Positions 2,608 to 50,935 of a stretch of DNA of 64,000 nt are shown piece after piece (within the stretch, counting starts at the first letter, position 1; every line of letters starts with the position of its first letter). The notes under the pieces are model-generated. The model ran no database searches. It was not told the DNA's origin and was given only the letters and a program-made list of their open reading frames with translations. The translations under genes were made by a program, and so were the position numbers. The stretch is from a virus (lineage: Duplodnaviria > Heunggongvirae > Uroviricota > Caudoviricetes): the IMG/VR virus record IMGVR_UViG_2836824207_000004, positions 10,278 through 74,277 of that record. One strand, given 5' to 3'.

Positions 2608-3138
2608 ATGCAATTAGCCAACCCAGAAAATTTTAAACAGTTTGTACAAATTAAAGATAACAGTACGGTAACCACTTCTGAGATTGTGGCAAAAGTGTTT
2701 GGAAAGCGACACGATAATGTTATTCGTGATATTCGGGCTATTCTACAAGAATGCGATGAGGATTTTGCAAAACTCAATTTTGAGGTTTGTTTTAAAATCA
2801 ATAAGTTACAGAATGGTAAACCCACACCTTATTATAATTTAACTAAAAACGGATTTATGTTACTTGTAATGGGCTATAAATCCAAAAAAGCAATGAAGAT
2901 GAAAATTGCTTATATTCAAGCTTTTGATTATATGGCTGGTGAATTGGCAAAAGGGGCGGCAGGGTTACTAGAGCAGTATTATCAATTATTAGGTGAGCAT
3001 AATGCCGAAAAACAATTTGCTAGTCTTTGTGGCAAAGGGTTAAACCAATGGAAAGAGAAAAAACCATTAATTGAGGCAACACTTCGATTATTTGAAGACA
3101 AAATGCAAATTGAGCTACCATTATTGAATAAGCTCTAA
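2608..3138 (+). CDS. Rha-family phage regulatory protein (antirepressor-like)
   Basis: N-terminus MQLANPENFKQFVQIKDNSTVTTSEIVAKVFGKRHDNVIRDIR matches the Rha (pRha) domain pattern. An AAGGA RBS precedes the ATG at 2608. The track ORF starts earlier at 2347 but overlaps the helicase start. Confidence 0.7.
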   Translation: MQLANPENFKQFVQIKDNSTVTTSEIVAKVFGKRHDNVIRDIRAILQECDEDFAKLNFEVCFKINKLQNGKPTPYYNLTKNGFMLLVMGYKSKKAMKMKIAYIQAFDYMAGELAKGAAGLLEQYYQLLGEHNAEKQFASLCGKGLNQWKEKKPLIEATLRLFEDKMQIELPLLNKL

Positions 3139-3156
3139 GCATACGAAAAATTAAAT

Positions 3157-3186
3157 CCCTGTTGACCTCAGCAGGGTTTTCTTTTA
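3157..3186 (+). terminator. Rho-independent terminator after rha
   Basis: Hairpin ccctg-ttgacctcag-caggg followed by a T-run. Confidence 0.6.
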
Positions 3187-3320
3187 TATTACCCACATAG
3201 GCGTCGAAACCTACAACCAAAGGCGGTAATCCGCACCCGACAGCATAGCGGTTTTTTTATGCGTAAAATTTGTGTTTCTCCTTTTTTCTCATAACGAATT
3301 GAACGCACATATCACTCTAT

Positions 3321-3398
3321 GCCGAGAGGGCGGAGAATAAAACACCCGAAAGGGGAATAATCCCGACCGTTCCTTTGGCGGTTTTCGAACCTCTTGGC
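3321..3398 (+). ncRNA. Conserved structured 5-prime leader element, copy A (cis-regulatory RNA candidate)
   Basis: Closing stem gccgagagg / cctcttggc encloses an acccGAAAgggg GNRA hairpin and a second hairpin. It is homologous to copies B (4225-4301) and C (36564-36639) with compensatory base changes. It is preceded by a conserved block GCGGTTTTTTT..TAAAATTTGTGTTTCTCCTTTT. Confidence 0.35.
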
Positions 3399-3419
3399 AA
3401 CCCAACTTAAGGACTAGAA

Positions 3420-3899
3420 GTGCAATTTGTCGAAACAAGTGAGAATAACATCACTTATATTCATACCGAATTTAATATTGAAAATGTAACTTATTTAGCC
3501 ATTTTTTCAAAAGATGATGAAACGTTATTTTTCTTTAACGATGACGTAAATATAACAAAATACATTCATCATCGTCAGGTATATTCTATTAAATTTCTTG
3601 TGAAAGATTATCTTGAAACAGAAAATGATGATTTGTACGCGCCACCGTTGGATCATAAATTTGGCAAAAAACAAATTGCTGAATTAAAACAAAAACTTGA
3701 GGAAATTGTCTATCAGCATTATTTAAGGTTTAAGCCAGATTGCTATGTTTTTGTAGGGGAACGCCCTTCATTAATCAGAATGTATAAAAAACTTTGTGCA
3801 AACCCAAGCGATTTTATGGTAAACTTTAAGCCAATAACGGATTTAGGCAGTCATAGAGATTGTTTTGTGATAAAAACCCCATCCTACAAGGAGGAATAA
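3420..3899 (+). CDS. hypothetical protein (159 aa), GTG start
   Basis: ORF with an AAGGA RBS, lying behind leader copy A. No recognisable domain. Confidence 0.5.
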   Translation: MQFVETSENNITYIHTEFNIENVTYLAIFSKDDETLFFFNDDVNITKYIHHRQVYSIKFLVKDYLETENDDLYAPPLDHKFGKKQIAELKQKLEEIVYQHYLRFKPDCYVFVGERPSLIRMYKKLCANPSDFMVNFKPITDLGSHRDCFVIKTPSYKEE

Positions 3900-3900
3900 A

Positions 3901-4011
3901 ATGATGAAGAAAACGACCGCTGCCGAAATGAAAAAACAAGCAGCCCAAAAATTTAAAAAAGCGTATCAACAAGCGAAAAAAAATGGCGCACTAAAAGAAA
4001 TTTCAGAATAA
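3901..4011 (+). CDS. small basic protein (36 aa)
   Basis: Strong RBS AAGGAGG 8 nt upstream of ATG 3901. Sequence MMKKTTAAEMKKQAAQKFKKAYQQAKKNGALKEISE. Below the ORF-track length cutoff. Confidence 0.45.
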   Translation: MMKKTTAAEMKKQAAQKFKKAYQQAKKNGALKEISE

Positions 4012-4028
4012 CCCCCTTAGTACAATTA

Positions 4029-4060
4029 CCCCTAGCAGTGAAAATTGGTAGGGGTTTTTC
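4029..4060 (+). terminator. terminator-like hairpin plus T-run
   Basis: acccctagc...gtaggggttttt. Confidence 0.4.
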
Positions 4061-4224
4061 ATTTGACAACCCAAATTTATTTCATTACTATTAGTTTCAT
4101 AGGTGTCAGAACCTTAGTAGCGGGAATCCGCAACCGAAATCCAATGCGGTTTTTTTGTGTCTAAAATTTGGTGTTTCTCCTTTTCTCAGCCAAGTTTAAC
4201 AAAAAACGGTAAATGACAATCAAT

Positions 4225-4301
4225 GATCGAGTGGGTGAGGAATACAATACCCGAAAGGGAAATAACTCCAGCTTACTACTAGGCTTCTGAACCACTCGAT
4301 C
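4225..4301 (+). ncRNA. Conserved structured 5-prime leader element, copy B
   Basis: 10-bp closing stem gatcgagtgg / ccactcgatc, internal cccGAAAggg GNRA hairpin and agctt..aggct hairpin. About 85% identical to copy C, with GU and compensatory changes. Confidence 0.4.
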
Positions 4302-4360
4302 ACCAGTTACCTTTATGATAAAGGCAACTGACATTATTCAGAAAATTAGTAGAGGCAATT

Positions 4361-5257
4361 ATGTCAAATATCATCACCGCTGATTACAACGGCACTCAAG
4401 TTTTCTTTCAAAACGACGCTTATCTCAATGCAACAGCAATTGCTAAACGCTTTAACAAACGCCCTAATGATTGGCTAAATTTACCAACCACACAAGAGTA
4501 CATTGAAGCCTTATCAAAAGCCGAAACAAGAAAATCTGGTAACGCTACCAAAGTGGAAAAATCCCACTTTGTAAAAACAGTAAGAGGTGGTAAAAATTTA
4601 TCAAAGCAAGGAACTTGGCTACATCGCCGTTTAGCTGTTCCATTCGCCCGTTGGTTAAATGTTGAATTTGCAATTTGGTGCGATGAAGAAATCGAGAAAA
4701 TACTAATCGGGCAAAAACAGGCAAACTTATTAACAACAGAAAACGACACCATCACCCCCGAAGAACAACGCCTTATTCAAAACGCCGTTGCTGCAACTCA
4801 TCAACGTACCAAAATGAGTTATGGCGAAATCTGGGCAAGAGTGAAAAATAAATTTGCGGTGGCGAAATATGAGCAAATCAAACGCAAAGATCATCGTGAT
4901 GTGATGATTTACATTGCTTCAATGCACTCAATGCAAGAATTGCCACCCAATAGCCTTGCGTTAGATATGGAAAATTTCTATATGCTAGCTAAAGCAATGA
5001 ATTACATCAATCATTCTGTTGCCGCTTGGGAGCGTTTAGAAGATTTATTTTCTGATTTGGAAAGCCATAAAAACTACAAAACCGCTTTCAACCTTGGCAC
5101 TGCGAGCAATCGCCTTGCACAAACGCTAGAAAGCTTTATCGCCAAGCACACCCAATCGCTTAAAGATAAAAACATACGCGAAGAAATCGAAAACTTGATT
5201 TTTAACAGCCCAAGAACAGAGCAAAGCCCCACAAAAACCGTAAATTACTTACGTTAA
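4361..5257 (+). CDS. phage antirepressor: KilA-N-like N-terminal domain plus C-terminal domain shared with the 35588-36523 paralog
   Basis: N-terminus ITADYNGTQVFFQNDAYLNATAIAKRFNKRPNDWLNL is KilA-N-like. The C-terminal ~170 aa is ~95% identical to the paralog. Confidence 0.7.
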   Translation: MSNIITADYNGTQVFFQNDAYLNATAIAKRFNKRPNDWLNLPTTQEYIEALSKAETRKSGNATKVEKSHFVKTVRGGKNLSKQGTWLHRRLAVPFARWLNVEFAIWCDEEIEKILIGQKQANLLTTENDTITPEEQRLIQNAVAATHQRTKMSYGEIWARVKNKFAVAKYEQIKRKDHRDVMIYIASMHSMQELPPNSLALDMENFYMLAKAMNYINHSVAAWERLEDLFSDLESHKNYKTAFNLGTASNRLAQTLESFIAKHTQSLKDKNIREEIENLIFNSPRTEQSPTKTVNYLR

Positions 5258-29824: not shown

Positions 29825-32437
29825 TTAAGTTAATAAGCCAGCTTCTCTAAAATAACTTTCCAGTTCCTCTAATACTTCTGGTGCAAGTACAGTCTCTCTG
29901 CTTCTGCGGCTCGTTTTCCATCTACCGATTGCCAAAAACTGAATTCGCATCGCTCCTTGATTAATGGTTCTGTGTTCATACTCATAATAAAAACACTGTG
30001 ATTTGTTAGATTTAGTTAAAATATTTATACCGAAACTGTGAGGGGTATTAACCGAAGTGGTTAGTGATGCGAAAATTAATGGTATATCAATGAAGGCTTC
30101 AGGCCACATAAAGGATTTCTCTCGCGTACCCACAATATCATTTTGATTAAAACAATAGGTCTGAATCATTGTCCCATCGGGGTACTTCATCACTTCGAAC
30201 CCACCTATGACGGATTTATTTGAAATTGATCTTGCAATAGACTCTTTTATCAATAGCTTTAAATCCGTTATCTCACTTGCGGTATGCGTATGCGAAATGT
30301 CCGCTTTTTCTGCCCGCACTTGTTGGATATCTTGAGCCAAACGGCCCACCTCAAGCTCACCCGCATTGCTCACATTGCCAAAGGCTTTAATCCAAAACTG
30401 CACCCCATCGAGCGTGTTTTGTGCTTTAATGCAGAGTTTGAGAACAAGGGATTTCGGGCGCGTTTCTTCCGCAGTTCGTGTATCTTTATCCGTACCATCC
30501 TTCGTAGAAGCAAGGTAGGTTTTTGCCCTTACCCCATCGGCGACTGCCGTGTTGTTCGCCTGCACCCTGCCTTGTTGTGCAGACTTAAACGAACCTGGCT
30601 CCACATCGGTGGTATCACCATCACGAATGACGAGAGTGATATCTTTCTCGGCTTGATAATCGCCCCCTGCTTCGGTAGGAATATAGTGAAAGTGGTCTTG
30701 AAGGGTATCTTCTTGCACCTCACCCACCGCAAGCAATGCCCCCGCGTTACGAATAAAGCGGTCTTTCGCTTTCGGCACGGCGGAAAGGCTGCCATATTTC
30801 GCCACAAGGTGGCGATACAGTTCGGGATAAGCCTGTTCACTCACCTGCTCTTCAATGTCATCAAAGGCAATCCAGCCCGCCGGAATGTTATCTGTGGGAA
30901 AATACGCCGTCATTCCCACATCAGAGCGGCGTAAATCAGGCAGTTTGTTGTTATTGCCTAACGTGCGGTATAAATCGGGGTAAGTGCTACTACCAAAAGT
31001 TGAGCCATCGCATCGCAAAAATCCGTGCGGATTTTGCACCGCACTTGGAAATGCCACGACCGCGCCGACAGGAATGATGCTTTGGATTTTCTCGTCGACC
31101 CAACCCCGATACGCTACAACCTCATTTTTAGTAAGCTGCGGAAATGCTAAACAGCGTTGCTCGCCACTTGCAGAGCGATAGACATAATTAAATCTTGGGT
31201 CGGTTGCTGAGGCAGGATTGACGTCCCACTGCCAATAGCCACCATCGGGTAGGGTGGCACGGATGCGCCCCCAACGATTGTTAGCAATATTAATAAGACC
31301 TGTTGCGGTTATATCTGGTGCGGCAATATTACCCGTAAATGTCCCACCAAGCTCGGTCATAATGCGCTTTTGACCAAGGTGATTGCCATTGGCATCAAAG
31401 GCTGTCGTAAATATATCCCAAGCAATATTGCCCGTTGAGCTACCATAGCTAAAGCAAATCCCTCTAGCGTGAGCATTGGTGCTGTAGCTTGGGTGGGTAA
31501 TGTGCATCATCAACCCATTGAGTGGGAGATTATTAAGTCTAGCGCCGTTTGGACGATAAAACCCGCTGTAGGTATAGCCATTAGCCTTGGTATAGTCGAT
31601 GGTTTTCAAAAATGCCTCGCCACCAACCTTATCTAGCTTGATGTCGTTAAGGTCATACACTGCCTTACTGGTCGCCACGGTGTCGCTACTTGCCAAATTA
31701 ATTGCATTAGATTTTTTGCTGTTGGGGATATAGTTACTCAGATTGCGGGTTAAGGCATCAATCAGCCCTTTCAACGTTTTCCCCGCTTTGGCGGTGAGCC
31801 CTAGGGTTTCTGCTTCGCTATCGGTGGCGTTGGTGAGTTGCACAATGCCCGCTTGGCTTGTGCTTGCTTTGTCGATTTCGTGGCTGTGGCCCGTTTCCTC
31901 CACGGCGTTTTGGCTAGTGGCGGTGAGAGTTTTTGGGGTATATTGAGGGTGTGGATTATCTTCATTTTCGTGCTGATTTATGAGCTGAATAAGTTTATCT
32001 TGATCTTGCATTATTTGCACATCAATACGTTCAACAGGCATTGCTTCCAAGGCAAGCGAAAATGAAATTGTTGTCTCCACTTTATCAGAGATAAAAATTA
32101 ACCCTTCGCCTTTTATTTCATCCGAAGAATAAACAGCGATAAGCGTATTATTTGCCCAAAAACCAATTTCATTACACCAAAAACCTTCATCTTGTTCTGC
32201 TTTTATAACAAAACGCATCTGGATTGTTTTCTCATCTAATCTTACAGCGGATGCAATACCTACACGCAATCTCTCTTGTTTTAGGGAAGTTTCTTCTCCC
32301 GTTGGTCGATATTTTTCCGTACCAAATGCCGCGTGTGTAATAGTCAGCGATAAATGCTGATTATTATTCATCGTAGCGAGTTTTAATCCTGCCTTAGTTA
32401 TTGTTGGGGGGCTATTGATTTGATTTACAGCCATCAC
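29825..32437 (-). CDS. tail fibre protein, P2 gpH-like N-terminus (870 aa)
   Basis: GFWCNEIGFWANNTLIAV and ASTSQAGIVQLTNATDSEAETLGLTAKAGKTL parallel P2 H (GFWMRELGLYDDAGTLIAV; ASLTAKGFTQLSSATNSTSETLAATPKA). Also has C-terminal HTHT motifs. Confidence 0.8.
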   Translation of the reverse strand: MMAVNQINSPPTITKAGLKLATMNNNQHLSLTITHAAFGTEKYRPTGEETSLKQERLRVGIASAVRLDEKTIQMRFVIKAEQDEGFWCNEIGFWANNTLIAVYSSDEIKGEGLIFISDKVETTISFSLALEAMPVERIDVQIMQDQDKLIQLINQHENEDNPHPQYTPKTLTATSQNAVEETGHSHEIDKASTSQAGIVQLTNATDSEAETLGLTAKAGKTLKGLIDALTRNLSNYIPNSKKSNAINLASSDTVATSKAVYDLNDIKLDKVGGEAFLKTIDYTKANGYTYSGFYRPNGARLNNLPLNGLMMHITHPSYSTNAHARGICFSYGSSTGNIAWDIFTTAFDANGNHLGQKRIMTELGGTFTGNIAAPDITATGLINIANNRWGRIRATLPDGGYWQWDVNPASATDPRFNYVYRSASGEQRCLAFPQLTKNEVVAYRGWVDEKIQSIIPVGAVVAFPSAVQNPHGFLRCDGSTFGSSTYPDLYRTLGNNNKLPDLRRSDVGMTAYFPTDNIPAGWIAFDDIEEQVSEQAYPELYRHLVAKYGSLSAVPKAKDRFIRNAGALLAVGEVQEDTLQDHFHYIPTEAGGDYQAEKDITLVIRDGDTTDVEPGSFKSAQQGRVQANNTAVADGVRAKTYLASTKDGTDKDTRTAEETRPKSLVLKLCIKAQNTLDGVQFWIKAFGNVSNAGELEVGRLAQDIQQVRAEKADISHTHTASEITDLKLLIKESIARSISNKSVIGGFEVMKYPDGTMIQTYCFNQNDIVGTREKSFMWPEAFIDIPLIFASLTTSVNTPHSFGINILTKSNKSQCFYYEYEHRTINQGAMRIQFLAIGRWKTSRRSRETVLAPEVLEELESYFREAGLLT

Positions 32438-32506
32438 ATATCCTTAACGATAAAAATCTGTGAGGCTAGTATAAAAAGATAGATATATTTAATACTTGTT
32501 TTTTTC

Positions 32507-32833
32507 CTAAATCACCGTTTTATAAAATTCTCTTTTTTCTTGGTTATTTTCATATCCAGCACGAGATTTTATTTCTTTAAGCTGTTTTTCAGTAGGCAGA
32601 ACAAGAATCTGTTCATTAAGTGGCTCATCAAAAGAACCAAGCCCAGCGGCTGCCATAATAGTAAGAAACTCATTTCGTCGCCCATACACCCGTAGGCTTA
32701 CCAAAGTAAGATCGTGCTTTTCATCAAATTTTGTTTCATAACGAATTGCTGGTTCCCATTTTTTAGTTCTGATCGAAAAATCACGAACAAGTTGTACAAA
32801 CCTATTACAAGCCATAGAATGACTTTCTATCAT
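32507..32833 (-). CDS. hypothetical protein between the I-like and H genes
   Basis: Track ORF 32507-32920. It was trimmed to an internal Met to avoid overlap. Confidence 0.4.
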   Translation of the reverse strand: MIESHSMACNRFVQLVRDFSIRTKKWEPAIRYETKFDEKHDLTLVSLRVYGRRNEFLTIMAAAGLGSFDEPLNEQILVLPTEKQLKEIKSRAGYENNQEKREFYKTVI

Positions 32834-32846
32834 AAATCCCCCTGCC

Positions 32847-33512
32847 TTAAATAATTGGTAATCGGCACTTGCCTTTAAATGAGGCAAAATTAAACCCAGA
32901 AAATCCCGTTCCAATAACAACTTTTGAAGGCTTGTTTTTATTTCCTAGTTCTTTTTTTACAGTCAGTCCAACAACAAATCTAGCTCCTATAATTGATTGA
33001 ATTGTAGATACATACTGCAGTATTTGTTGCCCATCTTCGCTTATATCGGTGATTGAAATTTTTATCCTAGATGTAAGCCAATGAGGGGTGTTTTTTCTAC
33101 GAACTCCTTCGGCATTTACAAGCGATGTTGTATATGGTTTATCTGTTTCCTGCCACAATTGCTCAATAGTGAAGCCATCTGGATAAAGCATTTGTAAATA
33201 AGTACGCAGAAAATGAAAACCTCTTTTAGGGTTTTTAACTCGCCAAGCCTTAAAAAGATAACGAAGTCTATCAATATCGCCATCAGCACGCATTAGACTT
33301 AGCCCATCATTTAACGCAAATTTCGTTAATAATGCACTTTGAGCCAAATAAGGCGATCCATAATGTAATAAGTCCCTTTGTCTATGCCATAGCATTTTCT
33401 TAAAAACCCTAAGAAAAACATTTTTCCAAGCTAGTTCAATTTCCTCTGTCATTTCTGAGGCCACAAATGGATAAATAGGCGTGACCTCTTTTGCTCCTGT
33501 CTGATTTACCAT
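32847..33512 (-). CDS. tail protein I-like (221 aa), position-based
   Basis: Lies between the J-like and fibre genes, as in P2 and Mu. Confidence 0.4.
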   Translation of the reverse strand: MVNQTGAKEVTPIYPFVASEMTEEIELAWKNVFLRVFKKMLWHRQRDLLHYGSPYLAQSALLTKFALNDGLSLMRADGDIDRLRYLFKAWRVKNPKRGFHFLRTYLQMLYPDGFTIEQLWQETDKPYTTSLVNAEGVRRKNTPHWLTSRIKISITDISEDGQQILQYVSTIQSIIGARFVVGLTVKKELGNKNKPSKVVIGTGFSGFNFASFKGKCRLPII

Positions 33513-33514
33513 AA

Positions 33515-34978
33515 TTACTCCACTGTATTATATCCACCGCCCCACACGCTACTTTCATACCCATTAGACGTTAAATTAATTGTGATTGACTCTTTATCTA
33601 GGTATCGAAATACTTCGGGAGCGGAATTCACTCCATTAGATATTGATACATTTAAATCACTTCTTTTGTCCGCAAGTGCTGGAATTGCCTGCTCTATCAA
33701 ACTAAATACTTCTTTATTTTTTACAACAACCTTCCCTTGCTTGGTTGAAAAAGCATTTTTGCCATATTCTTGTAACAAAAGATCAATGATTTGAGCTTTA
33801 ACTTGTAATACATCATAAGCTCTTGCAATGATTGCATTAACGGTAATATGAATTTTTTCTGTAATTGGTTCAACGAACTTTGTCTTATAGGAGTCATCAG
33901 CTTCCGCAATGACTTGTGATATTTGTCGCTTGATAGATTCTTTACTTTCAACTGAATTATCGGGTAAAGCAAAAGAGTAAAATAGCGTATTAACATTATT
34001 AATGTCAGCCCCTCGTATTTTTTCTTCTATCTGTTCATTCCATACGGCTAGAAATGCCAAATGATTAAAGTTTTTACGAAGTAATTTATCAAACTCACCG
34101 AGAAATACAGCATTATCATCATAAGTCGAAGGATAATTACACAAGTTTCTTAATGTTGCTATGTCAATAGGATTTTTCCCCGCCCGTTTTAATGCTTTCA
34201 TTTCTAAATTAATCTCGTTTTCCTCATTAGCTTGAATATATTGAAATGAAAATGTACTTCCAAGCTCAGGCTGAATGTCGCCAAAACATTGTCCGCACTC
34301 TATCGTTATAACATCATTAATCGAGGGTTGAAATCCCACAACGGAGGTTTCACCAAACTTGACATATAAACGTTTATATTCATCTGACTCAATATGAAAA
34401 ACCTTTTCTCCCGCATCAACACCATTAAATTTAAAACAGGGGTCAAATACCTCACCATTGACTTTCACTTGAATAGTAGATATATAACTACCATCCTTTG
34501 GCTCTTCAACCTCAATAGCATAAAATGGATAGGACTCGCTCATAGTATGAGAGTGTTTAACAAATTGTAATTGGGTTGCCATAATTTCTCCCTCACCATT
34601 ATTTTGCGTTGAAGCTGGTAATGTAACAGGGCTGTCAATTCGATACATACGTCCGCTTGCGTCAAATAAATAACGACCCGCTTCAATCCTAACAGGCGTA
34701 TTGCCATTATTAATGGCTTTAATCTGAACAATCGCGGGCTTTGCAGTAAAGATTAATCCTTTCAAGGCGGCATCTGCCAATACGGTTGCGTCTCTTGATT
34801 TCAAAAAAGGCTCTTGCATTGCGACTTCAAGTTGCTGGCTATACATAGCAAGCATTTGAGCGATTGCCCCTTGCATTTGTAAAAATCTCGGATCGCCCGC
34901 GTGATACAAGGCGGCAGTCAGCTCGTTTTTTAACGCCTCTTCTTTCACCGCTTCAAGGAAGTCTTCTTTGGTGTACAT
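33515..34978 (-). CDS. baseplate J-like protein (487 aa), position-based
   Basis: Large baseplate-sized gene upstream of the I-like and fibre genes. Confidence 0.45.
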   Translation of the reverse strand: MYTKEDFLEAVKEEALKNELTAALYHAGDPRFLQMQGAIAQMLAMYSQQLEVAMQEPFLKSRDATVLADAALKGLIFTAKPAIVQIKAINNGNTPVRIEAGRYLFDASGRMYRIDSPVTLPASTQNNGEGEIMATQLQFVKHSHTMSESYPFYAIEVEEPKDGSYISTIQVKVNGEVFDPCFKFNGVDAGEKVFHIESDEYKRLYVKFGETSVVGFQPSINDVITIECGQCFGDIQPELGSTFSFQYIQANEENEINLEMKALKRAGKNPIDIATLRNLCNYPSTYDDNAVFLGEFDKLLRKNFNHLAFLAVWNEQIEEKIRGADINNVNTLFYSFALPDNSVESKESIKRQISQVIAEADDSYKTKFVEPITEKIHITVNAIIARAYDVLQVKAQIIDLLLQEYGKNAFSTKQGKVVVKNKEVFSLIEQAIPALADKRSDLNVSISNGVNSAPEVFRYLDKESITINLTSNGYESSVWGGGYNTVE

Positions 34979-34988
34979 TGTTCAATCC

Positions 34989-35300
34989 TCACATAATATC
35001 TAACACAATATTGCCAATCTCTAAGATAAAGTGCATTTTATCTGGACTCACAGGCACAGAATAAATGTTCACCGCATCAGGAGGGAGCATATCCAAAACG
35101 GGAACATCTCGACGCAATTTAGCAATCACTTCATCAGCCGCCCCCATTGTAAGCGGAGCGAATAACAGGGCGTGTTTATCAAAACCATAATCAGACCCTA
35201 AATAGCTATTCACAGGTGTTGCCAACCAATGCCGCACCATTTTTTCAACATCACTTTGTGTAATTTTTGCTGTTTCCATAATGACAATGAACCTCATCAA
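34989..35300 (-). CDS. baseplate W/gp25-like small protein (103 aa), position-based
   Basis: First gene of the operon, directly behind motif half-copy 6. Confidence 0.35.
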   Translation of the reverse strand: MMRFIVIMETAKITQSDVEKMVRHWLATPVNSYLGSDYGFDKHALLFAPLTMGAADEVIAKLRRDVPVLDMLPPDAVNIYSVPVSPDKMHFILEIGNIVLDIM

Positions 35301-35343
35301 ATTAATGCTATTATCGGGGTTTACTTTCCTTGACTTCGCTAAA

Positions 35344-35360
35344 TTTTCCTAATAAAAAAC
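35344..35360. promoter_or_regulatory. motif half-copy 6 TTTTCCTAATAAAAAAC
   Basis: Half-site upstream of the start at 35300. It overlaps a USS hairpin. Confidence 0.35.
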
Positions 35361-35388
35361 CGCACAACAAAGTGCGGTCGTTTTTTTC
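35356..35388. terminator. terminator from an inverted USS pair
   Basis: accgcac-aacaaa-gtgcggt followed by a T-run. Confidence 0.6.
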
Positions 35389-35505
35389 TTACTTTTTCAC
35401 CAATAAATCTGTTGTTATTCCACAATAATGCCCGTTGCAGTCTGAGCTTAAATCTAATTCGTACGCACACCACAACAAGCCAATAATCATTACAATCTTG
35501 AACAT
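35389..35505 (-). CDS. small hydrophobic protein (38 aa), paralog of 5340-5456
   Basis: MFKIVMIIGLLWCAYELDLSSDCNGHYCGITTDLLVKK with an AAAGGTG RBS. Confidence 0.5.
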   Translation of the reverse strand: MFKIVMIIGLLWCAYELDLSSDCNGHYCGITTDLLVKK

Positions 35506-35587
35506 AATTTCACCTTTTTACTGAATTTGAGGTAAGTAAAACCGCCACACGGTTCACGGGGAAGTGCGGTCGGTTTTGGTTAGGTTT

Positions 35588-36523
35588 TTAACGTAAGTAA
35601 TTTACGGTTTTTGTGGGGCTTTGCTCTGTTCTTGGGCTGTTAAAAATCAAGTTTTCGATTTCTTGCTGTATTTTTTTATCTTTAAGCGATTGGGTGTGCT
35701 TGGCGATAAAGCTTTCTAGCGTTTGTGCAAGTCGATTGCTAGCAGTACCAAGGTTGAAAGCGGTTTTGTAGTTTTTATGGCTTTCCAAGTCGGAAAATAG
35801 CTCCTCTAAACGCTCCCAAGCGGCAACAGAATGATTGATGTAATTCATTGCTTTAGCTAGCATATAGAAATTTTCCATATCTAACGCAAGGCTATTGGGT
35901 GGCAATTCTTGCATTGGGTGCATTGAAGCAATGTAAATCATCACATCACGATGATCTTTGCGTTTGATTTGCTCATATTTCGCCACCGCAAATTTATTTT
36001 TCACTCTTGCCCAGATTTCGCCATAACTCATTTTTGTGCGTTGATGGGTTGCAGCAACGGCGTTTTGAATAAGGCGTTGTTCTTCGGGGGTGATGGTGTC
36101 GTTTTCATTTATTGATAAAACTTTTTCTGCCTTGCCTTTATTCCAATAATCAAACAATGCTTGATAACATTCTCTTTTGTAGGTGATCAAGGTTTCTCTG
36201 ATTTCAGGTTTCACCCGTTTTACATCAATGCCAAATAGCCAGCCGTTGAGGTATTGGATTGGAAGGCATAATGTTTGTTGTTCACCACCTTGTGAAGGTA
36301 TGGTTATAATGACCATACCTTGAGAAAGAACTTCATCGCGTTTAATTCTTGCATATTGAGCTTTCCAGTCCAGACCAATATTTTCACAAATTGGCTTCAT
36401 TGCGACATAATGAACGTTGTTTTGCTCAAATGTAGTTAAAGTGCGGTCGTAAAATTGGATTGTTTGGAGTTGAGTTTGAATTGACATAATAGCCTCTGTA
36501 ATTTTCGAAATTTTGCTAGCCAA
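35588..36523 (-). CDS. phage antirepressor with P22 Ant-type N-terminal domain plus the shared C-terminal domain
   Basis: YVAMKPICENIGLDWKAQYARIKRDEVLSQGMVIITIPSQGGEQQTLCLPIQYLNGWLFGIDVKRVKPEIRETLITYKRECY matches the P22 antirepressor N-terminal pattern. The C-terminal 170 aa is ~95% identical to 4361-5257. Confidence 0.75.
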   Translation of the reverse strand: MASKISKITEAIMSIQTQLQTIQFYDRTLTTFEQNNVHYVAMKPICENIGLDWKAQYARIKRDEVLSQGMVIITIPSQGGEQQTLCLPIQYLNGWLFGIDVKRVKPEIRETLITYKRECYQALFDYWNKGKAEKVLSINENDTITPEEQRLIQNAVAATHQRTKMSYGEIWARVKNKFAVAKYEQIKRKDHRDVMIYIASMHPMQELPPNSLALDMENFYMLAKAMNYINHSVAAWERLEELFSDLESHKNYKTAFNLGTASNRLAQTLESFIAKHTQSLKDKKIQQEIENLIFNSPRTEQSPTKTVNYLR

Positions 36524-36563
36524 TTTAAGGTGTTCTTATAACACGAATACCTTTTGAAATTGG

Positions 36564-36639
36564 TGATCGAGCGGTTCGAAAGCCTACAGCAGGCTGGAGT
36601 TATTTCCCTTGCGGGTATTGTATTCCTCGCCCACTCGAT
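36564..36639 (-). ncRNA. Conserved structured 5-prime leader element, copy C
   Basis: gatcgagtggg / cccgctcgatc closing stem with a GU wobble. Internal cccGCAAggg GNRA tetraloop and perfect agcct-gctgt-aggct hairpin. Confidence 0.4.
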
Positions 36640-36787
36640 CATAGATTAAAATTACCATTTTTGTCCAAACTTGGCTGAGAAAAGGAGAAACACCAAATTC
36701 TAGATACAAAAAAACCGCAATGGATTTAGGTCTTGCGGAACTGACCGCTGTAAGGTTTCGACACCTATCAGACTAATACTAATAAAA

Positions 36788-36810
36788 AGCCTATTGCTTG
36801 TCAATAGGCT
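36788..36810. terminator. hairpin AAAAGCCTATTG..CAATAGGCT bordering the accessory island
   Basis: 9-bp stem. The same 12-mer AAAAGCCTATTG starts the hairpin at 39085. Confidence 0.4.
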
Positions 36811-36831
36811 ATATTGATGTTCGGCAACAGA

Positions 36832-37068
36832 TCACTTTCTACGTCGTTTTCGGCGTTTTTTAGATGAATTGGAACCAAAAATACCTAATATTGATATTGC
36901 AACAAACAATACAAAAAACACAATTTTAAATATCCAAACTAGGATAGAAAATATCTTTTTAAATATCTTTTTTTTGCTGCCTTTTCTTTCTGCCAGCCAA
37001 ACTTCCTTAGGAATAAGATGAAGAACTGGTTTAGTCGGTTCGTTAGACATTTTCGTTATCCTCATCAT
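36832..37068 (-). CDS. small membrane protein with poly-basic tail (78 aa or shorter)
   Basis: TM segment ILVWIFKIVFFVLFVAISILGIF followed by KKRRKRRRK. It overlaps the end of the upstream gene. Confidence 0.4.
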   Translation of the reverse strand: MMRITKMSNEPTKPVLHLIPKEVWLAERKGSKKKIFKKIFSILVWIFKIVFFVLFVAISILGIFGSNSSKKRRKRRRK

Positions 37069-38305
37069 CTGATTCTGTTATTTCGTTATATTGATTGGAT
37101 TTTTTCATAGCTTGTGATTGGCGATATTCATTGGCTTCTGCAACCATTGTGAACTCCACTTCACAACCTAATTTTTCAGCAGCTTTTGCAATTTCGGCAA
37201 GATCGACCTCAAAAAATTCTTTTTTAGTATTAACTCTATTGACCTGACAATGTGCGAATTTTTTATGTAATGTGTTTTCTAGTTTTGGTGCATCATCTGT
37301 CCTAATTAAAGCGTGGACATCAAAAGGGAATGGAACACTGGCATCACCTAATTCTTTAACTCGATCTAACGGTTCTAATCTTCTTGTCATTCCGATTTTA
37401 TAAACATTTTCCCCAAAAGAACCAATGTTAGAAATGACATATACCGTACCTTGTTTGGTGAGTTGAGCCATTGATATAGCACGTTGAGAGTCTTCTATCG
37501 CTTGCTTTAAATCTTGTTCTGCTTGAGCCAGTTTAGCTAATAACTCTTTATTGGTTTTATCTAATTCAAGCAATTTTTTATACTGTGCGATCTCTTTTTG
37601 AGCTTCCCTCTCTTTTTGTTCCGCTAGTTTTCTTTGTTTTTCAGCTTCACGTTGAACTTTTTGTTCTTCTCTCATCTCTTCTTGAATACGTTGCTGTTCC
37701 TCTTTTTCTCGTTGTTTTTTAAGTTCATATTCAAAGGCTAGGTGTAATTCTTCGTGTTTCAGAGCTAAATAATCTTCGCTAATGAAGATCCGAAATATCA
37801 CGCCTTGTTTGTTTAACCTTTCAAAGGACTTAGTCATTTTATTCTTGAACAAATCAAAGTTTCGGAAAGAGACATCGTTAATCAATAAATCACATTCTTT
37901 GTCAAATGCCGTAAGCATTATAGTTGATATGTTATTCATCATAGTAAAACCATCTTTTTCAGCTGTTTTACCTAGCCCGACGACCCATTCAGCATCGGAA
38001 TATGTAGCTTGCTCTGATTTTTTTAATTCAGCTTGTTTCTGTTTATTTTCATTCCATTTTTCTTTGAAACGTTTAGAAGAGCGAAATCTGAATTTTGGTG
38101 TGTAAGGAGCAATAGTGGAGACTTCTTGAGCGCATTCTGATTGACTGCCCTTAGAAAAGGGTTGTCCTTGATTGTTTTTGAGTTTCTTCCATTTTCTATA
38201 GTAAATAACAAATAAGATTAAAAAAATAGGGGAGGATAAAAACCAAATGATTGGTAATGCGGCGTCCATAAATAAACTCCTAAAATGAATGTGGGAATTT
38301 ATCAT
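37043..38305 (-). CDS. membrane-anchored DUF4041-like coiled-coil protein with C-terminal T5orf172 (GIY-YIG-like) domain
   Basis: N-terminal TM, long E/K/Q coiled coil. C-terminus VYVISNIGSFGENVYKIGMTRRLEPLDRVKELGD...EFFEVDL fits the T5orf172 pattern. Confidence 0.6.
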   Translation of the reverse strand: MINSHIHFRSLFMDAALPIIWFLSSPIFLILFVIYYRKWKKLKNNQGQPFSKGSQSECAQEVSTIAPYTPKFRFRSSKRFKEKWNENKQKQAELKKSEQATYSDAEWVVGLGKTAEKDGFTMMNNISTIMLTAFDKECDLLINDVSFRNFDLFKNKMTKSFERLNKQGVIFRIFISEDYLALKHEELHLAFEYELKKQREKEEQQRIQEEMREEQKVQREAEKQRKLAEQKEREAQKEIAQYKKLLELDKTNKELLAKLAQAEQDLKQAIEDSQRAISMAQLTKQGTVYVISNIGSFGENVYKIGMTRRLEPLDRVKELGDASVPFPFDVHALIRTDDAPKLENTLHKKFAHCQVNRVNTKKEFFEVDLAEIAKAAEKLGCEVEFTMVAEANEYRQSQAMKKSNQYNEITESDDEDNENV

Positions 38306-38491
38306 ACCAAAATTAAGAAACTTTTAAAGTAAGTGAGAACACCTTAATCAGATTGTATTCAACGAGCTTAAAATTGAGCTGGCCAAATTTATCACTGAGA
38401 TAGCAGCATTAAAACTAACAAAAATTAACTCATTGAAAAAGTGTAGTGCTATGATATACAATAACCGTATTATTAATTAAATTCTTACCTT

Positions 38492-38770
38492 ATGATACTT
38501 TCATTTAAGCATAAAGGCTTGGAAAAATTCTATAAAACTGGCTCAACTGCTGGGATTATTGTTGCACATTCGGCTAAATTAAAGCGAATTTTAGCGCGAT
38601 TAAATAGCTCAAAACAAATACAAGATATGAATATCCCGGGTTGGAATTTGCACCCATTAGCTGGAAACCTAACCAATCATTGGAGTGTTAAGGTAAATGG
38701 TAATTGGCGAGTTACGTTTAAACTGGAAAATGGACACGCTGAAATTGTGGATTATCAAGATTATCATTAG
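38492..38770 (+). CDS. higB: HigB toxin (RelE/ParE superfamily)
   Basis: MILSFKHKGLEKFYKTGS... matches the HigB killer-protein family. Toxin-first gene order. Confidence 0.8.
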   Translation: MILSFKHKGLEKFYKTGSTAGIIVAHSAKLKRILARLNSSKQIQDMNIPGWNLHPLAGNLTNHWSVKVNGNWRVTFKLENGHAEIVDYQDYH

Positions 38771-38779
38771 GAGATTACG

Positions 38780-39073
38780 ATGAATATGTATTGCCCACCG
38801 CACCCAGCAGAAGTTATCAAAGAAGATATTTTACCCGAGTTAGGCTTAACTGTAACACAGGCGGCTAAACAGTTAGGCGTAAACAGGGTAACCTTTTCCC
38901 GATTATTAAACGGCAAGTCCGCAATTAGTGCTGAAATGGCTTTACGGCTGCACGCTTGGCTAGGGGAAAATAGCCCTAGTCCAGAGAGCTGGTTACATCA
39001 GCAAGCGGATTATGATTTATGGAAAGCCTCACAAAAGCAAACATTTTCGGTTCAGCCTGCTTTTGTAGTATAG
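38780..39073 (+). CDS. higA: HigA antitoxin (XRE HTH)
   Basis: HTH segment LTVTQAAKQLGVNRVTFSRLLNGKSAISAEMALRL. Gene follows higB with a 9-nt gap. Confidence 0.8.
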   Translation: MNMYCPPHPAEVIKEDILPELGLTVTQAAKQLGVNRVTFSRLLNGKSAISAEMALRLHAWLGENSPSPESWLHQQADYDLWKASQKQTFSVQPAFVV

Positions 39074-39084
39074 CGAATATAAGA

Positions 39085-39110
39085 AAAGCCTATTGATTAT
39101 CTATAGGCTT
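39085..39110. terminator. bidirectional hairpin aaagcctat..ataggcttt
   Basis: 9-bp stem after higA and after the convergent small terminase gene. Confidence 0.5.
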
Positions 39111-39182
39111 TGAACATATCTATTTTATTGATAATTCAACCAACCTGAAATGGGGTCGGCTAAACTCATCATCGTCCGTGTT

Positions 39183-39845
39183 TTACGCTTCTTCATTTTC
39201 CGCATCTAACAGTGCCTTTCTTTCTTCCATTTCAGCACGCTCCTGCATTAACCGCGTCTCTTCCTGTCCTGAAGCTAAAATTGCGTCAAGTTCTTCGTAA
39301 ACTTTATCCATACTTTTCACTTCAACGGTTGATTCGACTTGTTGTTTTGGAACTAAATCATAATTTACATTCCCCAAGAATTGCACAAGTCTTGAGTCAT
39401 ACATTCCAACTAAACCGCCCTCAACAAGCATTGTTTTGCCTAGATCTTTAAACCTTTTGTACGCACCGAATAATTGTTTATTTTTTATACTTCCATCTTC
39501 ATTTTTCGCAGTACAATTATCTGTAAATGTTTGTTCATCAACACCACACAATAGAGCCATTCTTGTTATTGTTGGGAAAGCAACGCCAAGTATATCCATT
39601 TTCTTTCCCTCACTGTCTTTTTGAATTAACTCATAGTATTTGAGTTTCCCTTCAACATAATCATTGATCGCAGCCTCCATTTTCTCAATAGCTAAATCTG
39701 GATCAAACTTATAGGGACGTCCCCGTTTGGTTTCCCATTGCCCCTCTTCTAATTTGAGTTCCCTCTTCGAAATTGCGGCACTCACTTTTGCTTTACGTTT
39801 AACTTTTGTTTTTGCCGTTGTTGCAGCTTCCTTTCTAGTCGCCAT
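39183..39845 (-). CDS. terminase small subunit (Terminase_2-like)
   Basis: KRGRPYKFDPD...PTITRMALLCGVDEQTF...LVGMYDSRLVQFLGNVNYD match the pattern of Terminase_2 small subunits. No large subunit follows. Confidence 0.6.
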   Translation of the reverse strand: MATRKEAATTAKTKVKRKAKVSAAISKRELKLEEGQWETKRGRPYKFDPDLAIEKMEAAINDYVEGKLKYYELIQKDSEGKKMDILGVAFPTITRMALLCGVDEQTFTDNCTAKNEDGSIKNKQLFGAYKRFKDLGKTMLVEGGLVGMYDSRLVQFLGNVNYDLVPKQQVESTVEVKSMDKVYEELDAILASGQEETRLMQERAEMEERKALLDAENEEA

Positions 39846-40476
39846 ATCTATATCCCACTAAATCCAGTTGCTTTTCGCTTCCATCACTTAACACGCTTTT
39901 GAATTGACGCAATATATTGTCATCATAGGATTCTTTTGATAGCCTTCTTCGAGTGGATGAAATACGTTGGTTGATTTTATCGACTTGCTTCATCACTAAT
40001 GACCCCGCTTTAATATCCTCATCGAAATTAGGGTTGAGTTCACGCATTCGATTTACCGCATCAACGAGTTCAGCACTCTCATCACAAAGCATTGATAAGT
40101 GCATACTCAGAACCTGAGCTGACGCACCTTTAACTATGGTTTCTGTCAGCCCCTCTAAAAGCTGATTAGCATAATGCTGCACACTGCTATAAATAGCGAG
40201 TTGCTCAACACTTCTTGGATCTCGTTCTGGGTAATTCGACATACCCAGCAAATAATCCATTGACACGCCATAGCACAATGATGCCCGAGCAAGAAAATTA
40301 TGATTAATCGCCGTTTTCGAGGTTTTTCTTTCCATCTTGGAAATCATACTCGTATTAGTATAGCCCATTTCCGCTGCGGCTCTCTCTGGGCTTTTCCTTG
40401 CAAGTAAACGCGCACTTAAACAACGTGCACGGATTAAATCAGGATTTAACTTAAAGTTACTAATTTTTTTCGTCAT
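39835..40476 (-). CDS. XRE-family HTH protein (213 aa) at the late-regulator (Q) position
   Basis: HTH AAEMGYTNTSMISKMERK...ASLCYGVSMDYLLGMS. Sits between NinG and the small terminase gene. Confidence 0.5.
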   Translation of the reverse strand: MTKKISNFKLNPDLIRARCLSARLLARKSPERAAAEMGYTNTSMISKMERKTSKTAINHNFLARASLCYGVSMDYLLGMSNYPERDPRSVEQLAIYSSVQHYANQLLEGLTETIVKGASAQVLSMHLSMLCDESAELVDAVNRMRELNPNFDEDIKAGSLVMKQVDKINQRISSTRRRLSKESYDDNILRQFKSVLSDGSEKQLDLVGYRYGD

Positions 40477-40549
40477 ACAACAACCTTACTTAACTAATCC
40501 ACTTAACCACACTCTCATTTCTAACTTTTTATAAACGACTAAATCAATA

Positions 40550-41224
40550 TTACCGCTCCCGCTTTTCTAATAACTTCACTTTCCGTTCAAAAATCCGCTT
40601 AATCCGTCTTAAATCCTCATCGCTATAATGCCTTGGGCGTTGGTCGTTTTCGATTTCTTGCACCTTTTCAATACCCAAACGCTCAATGATCCCAATGCGA
40701 TATTGATGATAGTTTCCGTCAAGCCAGCGATTACAGCGTTTGCACTGACCAAAAATGTTTAACGAATAAAACCGCAAGTGCGGGGCTGAACCCCGACTAC
40801 GATAATGCCCCGCGTCAAATCCCCCGCCTAATTTCTCGCTAATCAACGGCGTACCGCACGAGATACATTCCTTATTCGCATCACGAAAACGGATATATTT
40901 ATTCACCGCACTTTGTGCTTCAGCAATGAGCTGATGATGCGTTTTATTCTTCTCTTTAAGTGCGGTCATTCTTTTGCGAGTTTCTGTTCGCTCCACCTTA
41001 GCCATTTTTTCACGCTTTTTGCGTGATTGTTCTGCCGATAATTTGATCGCACAATCCACACTACAGACTTTCTGTAAGCTACTTACTGTCTTTGTGTAAT
41101 AAGTGCCACACACTTTGCATTTATGCTGTTTTGGTGCTTTTGCCATTATTACCCCACAAGCACGAGCGTTATCATATATGTGGTATAGCAAACCACCCCA
41201 ACGCAAATTGCGATATAAAACCAT
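40550..41224 (-). CDS. ninG: NinG/Rap-like protein
   Basis: CISCGT...DAGHYRSRGSAPHLRF...NIFGQCKRCN parallels lambda NinG (CISCGT..DAGHYR..AP.LRF..NI.KQC..CN). Confidence 0.8.
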   Translation of the reverse strand: MVLYRNLRWGGLLYHIYDNARACGVIMAKAPKQHKCKVCGTYYTKTVSSLQKVCSVDCAIKLSAEQSRKKREKMAKVERTETRKRMTALKEKNKTHHQLIAEAQSAVNKYIRFRDANKECISCGTPLISEKLGGGFDAGHYRSRGSAPHLRFYSLNIFGQCKRCNRWLDGNYHQYRIGIIERLGIEKVQEIENDQRPRHYSDEDLRRIKRIFERKVKLLEKRER

Positions 41225-50192: not shown

Positions 50193-50880
50193 GTTTACTG
50201 ATGAACATATTGCTTTTATCCGTGAACATAAAGATTTAGCTCCTAAAGATCTCATTCAGGCCTTTTATCAACAATTTGGTTTGCTAAAGAATAGGCAGGT
50301 TTTTAGAAAGCTAAAAAAACGATTAGGAATTATCTCAACGGTTCAACATTGCAATCGATATACCAAAGAAGAGTTAGCCTTTATCAAAGAAAATTGCACT
50401 TTACCGCAAGCGGAATTAACCAAACTATTTAATCAAAAGTTTAACCGTAATCAGACCGCACAAGTAATTAGGGCACTGTGTGCTAAAAGAGGTTGGCTGA
50501 CTGGTAGAAATGGGCGATTTAAAAAAGGAGAACATTTAAAGCCTATTGGTTACGAGCGATTTTGCCCTATGGCAAAAGCCGTGTTGATAAAAACAGGAGT
50601 TAAGCGTTATGAAAGAAAATCACACGTTATCTGGGAACAAGCCTTTGGCAAAATCCCTCAAGGATTTGTTTTGTGGTTTAAAGACGGCAATATTCAAAAT
50701 TGTGAGTTATCTAATTTAGAACTAATCAGTCGTAATGAAATGCTATGGCGACATAAGCTGAATTACCACGAATTAGACAGCAGTGTGAAACAAACTTTTA
50801 ATGTGTTTATTCAACTACGAGAAAAATTGATAAAACTCAAAAAGCAACAGCAACAAAAGGACCGCATAGCAAAAGGATAA
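50173..50880 (+). CDS. HNH endonuclease (HNH_3-like)
   Basis: SHVIWEQAFGKIPQGFVLWFKDGNIQNCELSNLELISRNE is typical of HNH_3 homing-type endonucleases. Confidence 0.7.
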   Translation: MTKKRFRFTDEHIAFIREHKDLAPKDLIQAFYQQFGLLKNRQVFRKLKKRLGIISTVQHCNRYTKEELAFIKENCTLPQAELTKLFNQKFNRNQTAQVIRALCAKRGWLTGRNGRFKKGEHLKPIGYERFCPMAKAVLIKTGVKRYERKSHVIWEQAFGKIPQGFVLWFKDGNIQNCELSNLELISRNEMLWRHKLNYHELDSSVKQTFNVFIQLREKLIKLKKQQQQKDRIAKG

Positions 50881-50935
50881 GCTAAGGTGCTGTCACCACC
50901 TGAGATTGTAGGTTCAAGTCCTACTGCGGTCGCCA
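50860..50935 (+). tRNA. tRNA-like element with Asp (GUC) anticodon arm, non-canonical 5-prime half that overlaps the HNH stop
   Basis: Perfect acceptor pairing GACCGCA/TGCGGTC with a G discriminator and CCA. T-arm gtagg-ttcaagt-cctac. Anticodon arm aggtg-cuGUCac-cacct. The D-arm is one nt short and the V-loop is 6 nt. Confidence 0.3.

Follow-up and report, generated by a model that had tools for sequence, protein, structure and literature searches.

The antirepressor genes of several temperate phages are controlled by RNA. In phages P1 and P7, the c4 RNA of the immI operon (c4-icd-ant) blocks expression or translation of ant by binding around the ribosome-binding site (RBS), and it sets P1/P7 heteroimmunity (PMC12197685). 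The CI RNA of P4, once processed, pairs with seqA on its upstream side and with seqC on its downstream side, and the CI-seqA pairing leads to termination; in Salmonella, the short terminated IsrK RNA, a homologue of seqA, acts in trans on its own read-through mRNA and turns translation on (PMC4825925). Here we describe three copies (A, B and C) of a structured leader RNA of the Rfam family sRNA-Xcc1 (RF02221; hereafter Xcc1) in 64,000 nt of a virus of the Caudoviricetes (IMG/VR record IMGVR_UViG_2836824207_000004, positions 10,278 to 74,277; this whole stretch is called the window). From the arrangement and covariation of these leaders and their homologues, we propose with moderate confidence that Xcc1 represses translation as an antisense RNA of the c4 type, aided by a decoy or attenuator upstream of it, and that it is carried in a three-part cassette that travels with an antirepressor-type gene.

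Rfam has listed the sRNA-Xcc1 family since about 2012, under the description of a Xanthomonas 'virulence sRNA'. Its cloning from Xanthomonas campestris yielded a discrete RNA of 88 nt (PMC2996969; Jiang 2010), which has been described as a trans-acting, HrpG/HrpX-controlled integron sRNA (Chen 2011, as relayed by the papers that cite it). In later papers it appears only as an annotation match: in APSE phages ahead of an ORF6N protein, in Xanthomonas cassettes ahead of symE, in a Xylella prophage beside C4 and isrK, and in Haemophilus influenzae as a variable 'gene'; annotation pipelines also flag the family in Haemophilus, Xylella, Aeromonas and Escherichia coli without explanation. The literature that we found on sRNA-Xcc1 gives no mechanism and draws no link to c4. 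The element itself is an already catalogued RNA family and not a new one; what we infer to be new is a testable antisense cassette that resembles c4, with two boxes and a duplicate of the target upstream, which that literature does not describe for the family.

The Xcc1 element and its covarying partners

A preliminary description of this DNA had noted the three copies, read them as a conserved structured RNA with compensatory base changes and called for an Rfam search. That search found RF02221 at all three places, the full model (1-87 of 87) being matched in each case above the curated gathering score of 53 bits, so the element belongs to a known family, a point that the description had missed.

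3321-3398/3406 (+), Xcc1-A: RF02221, 72.1 bits; P3 loop CCTTTGG at 3372-3378, junction J3/1 TTTCGA at 3383-3388
4225-4301/4309 (+), Xcc1-B: RF02221, 61.4 bits; P3 loop CTACTA at 4276-4281, J3/1 TTCTGAA at 4285-4291
36558/36564-36640 (-), Xcc1-C: RF02221, 59.9 bits; P3 at 36595-36581 with loop GCTGT, J3/1 TTTCGAA at 36581-36575

The element, about 85 nt long, folds as a three-way junction of a closing stem P1 (9-11 bp), a P2a/P2 arm with a GNRA loop and a variable hairpin P3, in agreement with the three helices first noticed. The P2 hairpin has the form ACCC-GNRA-GGG, with tetraloops GAAA in A, GAAA in B and GCAA in C, and the P3 stem is accg/cggt in A, agctt/aggct in B and agcct/aggct in C. 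Among 102 distinct homologous sequences, which were gathered by a P2-arm pattern and aligned with the structure specified by hand, the positions of P1, P2a and P3 pair in 87.7% of cases, compared with 68.1% in column shuffles. Changes on both sides of a pair occupy 387 cells as against 143 in the shuffles (0 of 500 shuffles reach 387) and are seen at 15 of 19 base pairs, and sliding the 3′ partner by 1-3 columns drops pairing to 28-54%; the compensatory changes first seen in three copies therefore stand. RNAalifold did not recover P1 from the raw MAFFT alignment, the 5′ end of which was out of register by 1 nt in places. A small open reading frame (ORF) from a conserved AUG just 5′ of P1, which runs 13 codons to a conserved UAA in copy A and in the E. 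coli type, was rejected: its frame shifts in B, in C and in many copies with a P1 that is 1 nt longer, and it lacks a Shine-Dalgarno (SD) sequence. The UG of this AUG more probably forms the outermost pairs of P1.

Two parts of Xcc1, the 7-nt junction J3/1 just 5′ of the 3′ strand of P1 and the loop of P3, are single-stranded in the Rfam structure and vary in sequence between copies. In 62 of 67 non-redundant phage loci they are complementary to a downstream site, T2, at the RBS of the following gene, where J3/1 pairs with box1 (6-8 bp) and the P3 loop pairs with box2 (6-11 bp). Box1 usually follows a small hairpin, P4, and box2 lies 1-6 nt beyond box1; the box2 helix ends 5-11 nt ahead of the start codon and extends into the SD in 59 of the 62 loci, the distance from P1 to the start codon being 41-53 nt in most phage loci. 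The same two boxes, in the same order, are present about 100-170 nt upstream of Xcc1 in 64 of the 67 loci. At this upstream site, T1, box1 stands in the loop of a 5′-proximal hairpin and box2 is single-stranded directly after it, followed at once by CGG in 46 of the 64 loci and, 29-30 nt further on, by a T-run in 56. For example, the P3 loop CUCGUUGA of locus L013 has the partners UCAACGAG in T2 and CUCAACG in T1, and the P3 loop CUCACUGA of locus L024 has the partners UCAGUGAG and CUCAGUG.

The recognition segments of Xcc1, T1 and T2 co-vary as three sites. In the phage set, cognate pairing with T2 reached 15.56 compared with 9.69 after permutation (z 11.8), and cognate pairing with T1 reached 17.15 compared with 12.52 (z 19.7), the cognate value being attained in 0 of 10000 permutations for either site. 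A separate scan of bacterial genomes, independent of the phage loci, gave similar values outside the Xanthomonadales, 15.57 versus 8.94 for T2 (z 11.2) and 17.32 versus 12.73 for T1 (z 18.4), both with 0 of 5000 permutations; within the Xanthomonadales the z for T1 was 16.3. When the P3 loop alone was considered within one clade of near-identical scaffold (n = 14), it still tracked T2 (8.67 versus 5.75 permuted; z 6.9) and T1 (8.57 versus 6.91; z 5.6), again with 0 of 10000 permutations reaching the cognate value.

The genes behind the RNA belong for the most part to one functional class. Among the 76 distinct downstream proteins of the phage contigs, Pfam matches were to KilA-N (16), P22_AR_N (13), Bro-N (13), AntA (10), ORF6N (10) and Rha (7), which amounts to 69 matches to antirepressor-type N-terminal domain families among the 76 homologous loci, and the same families dominate the bacterial genome scan, together with a few HTH regulators and SymE toxins. 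Because these genes span many antirepressor-type domain families, Xcc1 tracks the functional class of the gene rather than a single protein family. The preliminary description had thus rightly linked the element to antirepressor genes.

Layout of the cassette in the window

About 190 phage and genome loci contain a fixed module, in the order sigma-70 promoter, 5′ RNA of ~60 nt (T1) with a terminal T-run, spacer, Xcc1, small hairpin and RBS (T2) of an antirepressor-type gene. In the window, the flanks of the three copies align as well, and what they share extends well past the 85-nt RNA: T1 begins with ATAGGYGTC and ends with GCGG and the T-run, and a conserved block, TAAAAT...TTTCTCCTTTT, and the upstream terminator-like T-run are present in all three. 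The preliminary description had recorded both the terminator and the block but had not seen their role as part of the module, in which the terminated RNA is the putative decoy or target T1. The parts are as follows.

3162-3190 (+), promoter A: TTGACC-17-TATATT, with its -35 within the terminator hairpin (3157-3176) of the upstream Rha gene
3197-3258 (+), T1-A: hairpin H1 at 3199-3212 with box1 TCGAAA at 3204-3209 in its loop; box2 CCAAAGG at 3217-3223; GCGG/CCGC hairpin at 3223-3234; T-run at 3252-3258; duplex with the recognition segment of Xcc1-A -21.1 kcal/mol
3259-3320 (+), spacer A: holds the conserved block TAAAATTTGTGTTTCTCCTTTTTTCTCA
3409-3422 (+), start region of gene A: SD AAGGA and GTG start of ORF 3420-3899; also a weak, non-canonical T2-A that matches over 5 bp at the SD (duplex -8.7 kcal/mol)
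3431-3438 (+), box1-like GTCGAAAC: past the GTG, inside the coding start of gene A
3420-3899 (+), gene A: 159 aa, no Pfam match
4063-4091 (+), promoter B: TTGACA-17-TACTAT
4099-4156 (+), T1-B: H1 at 4101-4114, box1 TCAGAA at 4106-4111; box2 TAGTAG at 4115-4120; GCGG/CCGC hairpin at 4120-4131; T-run at 4150-4156; duplex -18.2 kcal/mol
4305-4330 (+), P4 hairpin B (CAGTT...AACTG): between Xcc1-B and T2-B
4337-4363 (+), T2-B operator: box1 TTCAGAA at 4337-4343; box2 TTAGTAG at 4346-4352, running into SD GAGG at 4352-4355; ATG at 4361; duplex with Xcc1-B -20.5 kcal/mol
4361-5257 (+), gene B: antirepressor-type, KilA-N + ORF6C, 298 aa
36776-36804 (-), promoter C: TTGACA-17-TAGTAT, with its -35 within the upstream terminator hairpin (36810-36788)
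36708-36768 (-), T1-C: box1 TCGAAA at 36761-36756 in the H1 loop; box2 TACAGCGG at 36752-36745; CCGC at 36738-36735; T-run at 36714-36708; duplex -22.3 kcal/mol
36527-36553 (-), P4 hairpin C: between Xcc1-C and T2-C
36485-36509 (-), T2-C operator: box1 TTCGAAA at 36509-36503; box2 TACAG at 36500-36496, running into SD GAGG at 36496-36493; ATG at 36487-36485; duplex with Xcc1-C -21.5 kcal/mol
35588-36487 (-), gene C: antirepressor, P22_AR_N + ORF6C, 299 aa

A second copy of both recognition sites thus stands upstream in the same transcript in all three window copies, as a1b1 does in the c4 system, and the counterpart of a2b2, two sites at the RBS complementary to junction and loop, is found for B and C, as in the 62 phage loci, and is weak for A. 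The pairing is written out as GUCAGAACCUUAGUAGCGG upstream and UUCAGAAAAUUAGUAGAGGC downstream for copy B, and as GUCGAAACCUUACAGCGG upstream and UUCGAAAAUUACAGAGGC downstream for copy C. Cognate duplexes of the window copies range from -18 to -22 kcal/mol, apart from T2 of copy A, and non-cognate duplexes of Xcc1-B range from -6 to -12 kcal/mol; B is orthogonal to A and C, and A and C, which have a common box1, can cross-pair. Hairpins equivalent to P4 were found in most homologues. In the window, the genomic context, namely the KilA-N + ORF6C and P22_AR_N + ORF6C genes behind B and C, suggests control of an antirepressor.

No second promoter was called between the T-run of T1 and Xcc1 for A or B. 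In C, a weak promoter-like site (36667-36638, minus strand, TGGACA-18-TATGAT) lies over the 5′ edge of Xcc1-C; a transcript from it, if it is used, would begin inside P1. The placement of the -35 of the module promoters inside the terminator hairpins of the upstream genes (3157-3176 on the plus strand; 36810-36788 on the minus strand) is an overlap typical of inserted 'moron' cassettes. The loops of the T1 terminator hairpins carry a conserved motif, CCCGAUAG, CCCGUCAG or CUCCGACAA, both in the window (3231-3258, 4128-4156 and 36735-36708) and in many other loci; a search for a pairing partner of this motif (CCCGAYAG) and of the 45-nt block found none.

A proposed c4-like mechanism weighed against its rivals

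According to our proposal, transcription would start at a constitutive-looking promoter, and the first ~60 nt of the transcript, T1, would present the two boxes and a T-run terminator. Polymerases that read through would transcribe Xcc1 and then the second pair of boxes, T2, over the SD of the gene. Pairing of J3/1 with box1 and of the P3 loop with box2 of T2 would hide the RBS and leave the antirepressor untranslated; Xcc1 could act in this way within the same molecule and/or in trans, after its release as a stable small RNA. T1, the presumed counterpart of c4 a1b1, P4 seqA and IsrK, would compete for both Xcc1 segments. Since its transcription precedes that of Xcc1, it may mask Xcc1 within the primary transcript, and as an abundant terminated RNA it may titrate Xcc1 as a short, IsrK-like decoy; alternatively, accumulated Xcc1 may act on nascent T1 and alter its termination, in the manner of CI and seqA of P4. 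Since the boxes vary from cassette to cassette, each Xcc1 should be specific for the gene behind it. Repression of translation, processing of Xcc1 and the direction in which T1 acts are what we infer from sequence, whereas family membership, fold, module layout, three-site covariation, gene association and the overlap of box2 with the SD are directly observed. Release of Xcc1 by RNase P is plausible by analogy, since the end features that it shares with C4 (a U/G start of P1 and a CA|CC 3′ end) and the 88-nt species of Xanthomonas fit such processing, and RNase P is said to release c4.

The likeness to the P1/P7 c4 system (Rfam RF01695 C4, RF03163 c4-a1b1) is one of topology and arrangement. 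In c4, and as predicted in Xcc1, one transcript carries the RNA together with a target on either side, the downstream one at an RBS; an antirepressor is controlled, and recognition is element-specific, this last being the basis of heteroimmunity in P1/P7 (PMC12197685). The counterparts of a′, b′, a1b1 and a2b2 are J3/1, the P3 loop, T1 and T2, respectively. In its covariance-model consensus (cmscan), C4 starts with A|UG and a closing stem, within which stand one hairpin with a tetraloop, a second one with a large loop rich in U and C, and an unpaired junction; the 3′ strand of the stem follows, then CC and then a hairpin. C4 also shares with Xcc1 both the 5′ end A|UG and the 3′ end CA|CC. The two differ in the closing stem, which has 9-11 bp in Xcc1 and about 17 bp in C4; in the elaborate invariant P2 arm of Xcc1; in T1, with one hairpin and a single-stranded box where c4 a1b1 has two hairpins; and in the site of action, Xcc1 being predicted to mask the SD of the antirepressor gene itself and c4 of P1 reportedly acting at the SD of an icd-like ORF upstream of ant.

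Both kinds of module stand in tandem in the Stx2 phage WGPS6 (Stx2a_WGPS6, AP012539.1, locus L001, 1777-2630). There, Rfam finds isrK/c4-a1b1 (1777-1866) and C4 (1892-1975; 66.7 bits with the C4 model) ahead of a decayed antirepressor gene, and directly after this C4 module come T1, Xcc1 (2503-2586) and an intact ant gene. The junction of this C4, ACGCCAA, pairs with UUGGCGU in the hairpin loop of isrK/a1b1 and again just downstream of C4, and its P3 loop, GGUUUC, pairs with GAGACC upstream and with GAAACC beside the SD. P4 CI and the Gifsy-1 module IsrK-STnc1160-orf45-anrP of Salmonella also share the order of the Xcc1 cassette, that is, promoter, short terminated target-like RNA, read-through, processed structured RNA and an RBS site of an antirepressor-pathway gene (PMC4825925), but their RNA folds differ from that of Xcc1, and the window has no match to the isrK model at gathering score. 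Within RF02221, the Xanthomonas type has the same three-way junction and conserved P2 arm, and the ends of the model are those of the mapped 88-nt RNA. The family has been described as a trans-acting, virulence-linked sRNA, whereas the copies of the window and those of most phage loci are leader elements whose cognate sites lie at the downstream RBS; the Xanthomonadales members have the upstream site only, and the flanking T1, P4 and T2 are absent from the Rfam model.

Several points weigh against the proposal. The whole case for the mechanism is built on sequence complementarity, and common descent with c4 is undemonstrated because the C4, c4-a1b1 and isrK models find no match anywhere in the window at gathering score, nor at E<=10 in 3100-4400, which holds copies A and B; the isrK (RF01394) and c4-a1b1 models likewise match no T1 in the window or in 10 other loci. 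Xcc1 is accordingly filed outside the C4 family, although it would work like c4. A looser Rfam search of 3100-4400 for likeness to C4, isrK or riboswitches gave chance-level matches only. Copy A has a good T1 and a weak, atypical T2 and looks partly decayed or wired differently. The Xcc1 RNAs of Xanthomonadales and integrons show no T2 either ahead of the first ORF (z 0.7) or in the 600 nt downstream (z 0.0), and because this subfamily has T1 without T2, masking of the SD cannot be a universal function and the T1 interaction must matter in its own right. The promoter and the T-run of T1 are present at conserved positions, but its terminator hairpins, which are weak or have large loops, escaped the terminator scan. 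The antisense role leaves the invariance of the P2 arm unaccounted for. P2 was fixed by the homologue search pattern, so that its invariance in our set is partly forced. Start codons were called heuristically, and permutation removes shared ancestry only in part, a worry that is reduced by the tracking of T2 and T1 by the P3 loop within the clade of near-identical scaffold.

The alternatives draw on the same observations. A free-standing trans-acting sRNA, possibly Hfq-dependent, that regulates unlinked host or virulence genes and precedes antirepressor genes only incidentally would suit the typing of Xcc1 as 'Gene; sRNA' in Rfam, the discrete 88-nt species mapped in X. campestris (PMC2996969), its description as trans-acting and HrpG/HrpX-controlled (Chen 2011, again through citing papers) and the reported presence of Xylella copies in vesicles. 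We consider this quite improbable, as both variable single-stranded segments co-vary with their own transcript at fixed positions, Xcc1 lies 41-53 nt from the start codon in most phage loci, nearly all Pfam matches of the 76 downstream proteins (69) are of antirepressor type and the published target lists are predictions only. A cis-encoded role is favoured because local covarying targets were found, and a trans role may exist besides the local one. A cis-acting sensor, riboswitch-like or protein-binding, would give the P2 arm a part: this arm, with an internal loop and a GNRA tetraloop, is extremely conserved across phyla and dispensable for the pairing logic, and it could bind a ligand or protein and so set a double pseudoknot that hides the SD, a pairing that can form in a single molecule, with T1 as a mere folding competitor. 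However, no association with ligand-related genes was seen, the downstream genes being regulators and not enzymes or transporters; programmable two-box specificity and a duplicated target typify antisense immunity systems, c4 among them, and the Xanthomonadales type lacks the SD pairing, so we give this account little credence.

An immunity of the P4 type that is primarily transcriptional, in which Xcc1 pairs with nascent T1 and drives or prevents termination at the T-run while masking of the SD is secondary, would agree with the universality of T1 pairing, which T2 pairing does not share, with the fixed distance of 29-30 nt from box2 to the T-run, with the precedent of CI-seqA termination in P4 (PMC4825925) and with the Pasteurellaceae T1, in which GCGG-loop-CCGC-loop-GCGG-U7 gives alternative hairpins beside box2. 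The loci of the Xanthomonadales (L122-L241, e.g. L122, L128 and L238) combine a strongly covarying T1 and a strong terminator with a first downstream ORF that has no Pfam match. However, no conserved antiterminator/terminator alternative was found in the enterobacterial or Xanthomonadales types, and the Xanthomonadales terminators look strong by themselves, so that we regard a primarily transcriptional role as unlikely.

The three candidate functions named in the preliminary description fared unequally. That of a translational operator was half right, because the element does touch the translation start, but Xcc1 appears to be the antisense RNA itself and not an antisense target. The other two, a processive antitermination RNA like HK022 put or the target of an opposite-strand antisense RNA like P22 sar, also involve RNA-level control of phage antirepressor or early genes and could appeal to the terminator within the same leader and to phage Aaphi23, where the module lies directly behind the Q antiterminator gene. 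Yet Xcc1 is downstream and not upstream of the leader terminator, and its variable loops track the flanking RNA instead of being fixed for binding of RNA polymerase, on which put acts independently of complementarity to flanking RNA; modules elsewhere occupy many positions unrelated to Q, and, although sar is made from the opposite strand across the start of ant, the promoter scan found no opposite-strand promoter-like site within any of the three leaders. Both possibilities are in our estimation very improbable.

Genomic setting and significance

Matches among phages were to Aggregatibacter phage Aaphi23 and to Pasteurella phages at 71-76% identity, so the host is a bacterium of Pasteurellaceae type. 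Module A adjoins a Rha + ORF11CD3 gene upstream (2608-3138, plus strand), a third antirepressor-type gene in the cluster, before which Rfam finds no Xcc1 leader; a 36-aa lysine-rich ORF (3901-4011, plus strand) lies directly behind gene A. Just upstream of module C is a gene with DUF4041 and T5orf172/MUG113 domains (37046-38305, minus strand), and a tRNA gene is found at 50860-50932 (plus strand; Rfam tRNA model, 42.3 bits). An identical Ant protein is present in two NCBI assemblies. The contig L083 (IMGVR_UViG_2651869797_000027) has a prophage backbone ~98% identical to 31709-41148 of the window but holds a cassette of B-type Xcc1 and KilA-N in the slot of copy C; because its T1 is C-like and mismatched to its own B-type Xcc1, exchange of cassettes by recombination within the module is suggested. 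Of 5426 complete E. coli genomes, 161 carry the Stx-type T1-Xcc1 leader; the listed RefSeq records either leave it without annotation or have no feature over it except the gene of an ORF6N-domain protein.

A broader reading, which we put forward tentatively and hold to be somewhat doubtful, is that Xcc1, T1 and T2 form a second class of programmable RNA immunity cassette of the c4 type, one that is distinct in structure and has a far wider taxonomic distribution than c4, which may span the Gamma-, Beta- and Alphaproteobacteria, the Desulfovibrionaceae and a few other phyla. The promoter-proximal T1 RNA may then be the universal and primary partner of Xcc1, and in integron cassettes without an RBS target the two may form an antisense-controlled attenuator or decoy pair. 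Where a prophage carries several cassettes, these may constitute an RNA specificity code that chooses which antirepressor fires.

The c4-type repressor role proposed here for Xcc1 would be a variation on a known theme, that is, a broad extension without a new principle. If it is correct, Xcc1 would be the antisense part of a portable cassette that keeps the antirepressors of phages silent, together with further potentially toxic genes in some lineages. This would account for its constant position 5′ of such genes, for the drift of its loops and for the several copies per prophage, and it would extend the principle of P1 c4, P4 CI and IsrK to a far larger set of temperate phages and to integron cassettes. 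It would also provide a handle on prophage induction and cross-immunity, in that, after a swap of the two 7-nt boxes, it should be predictable which antirepressor responds.

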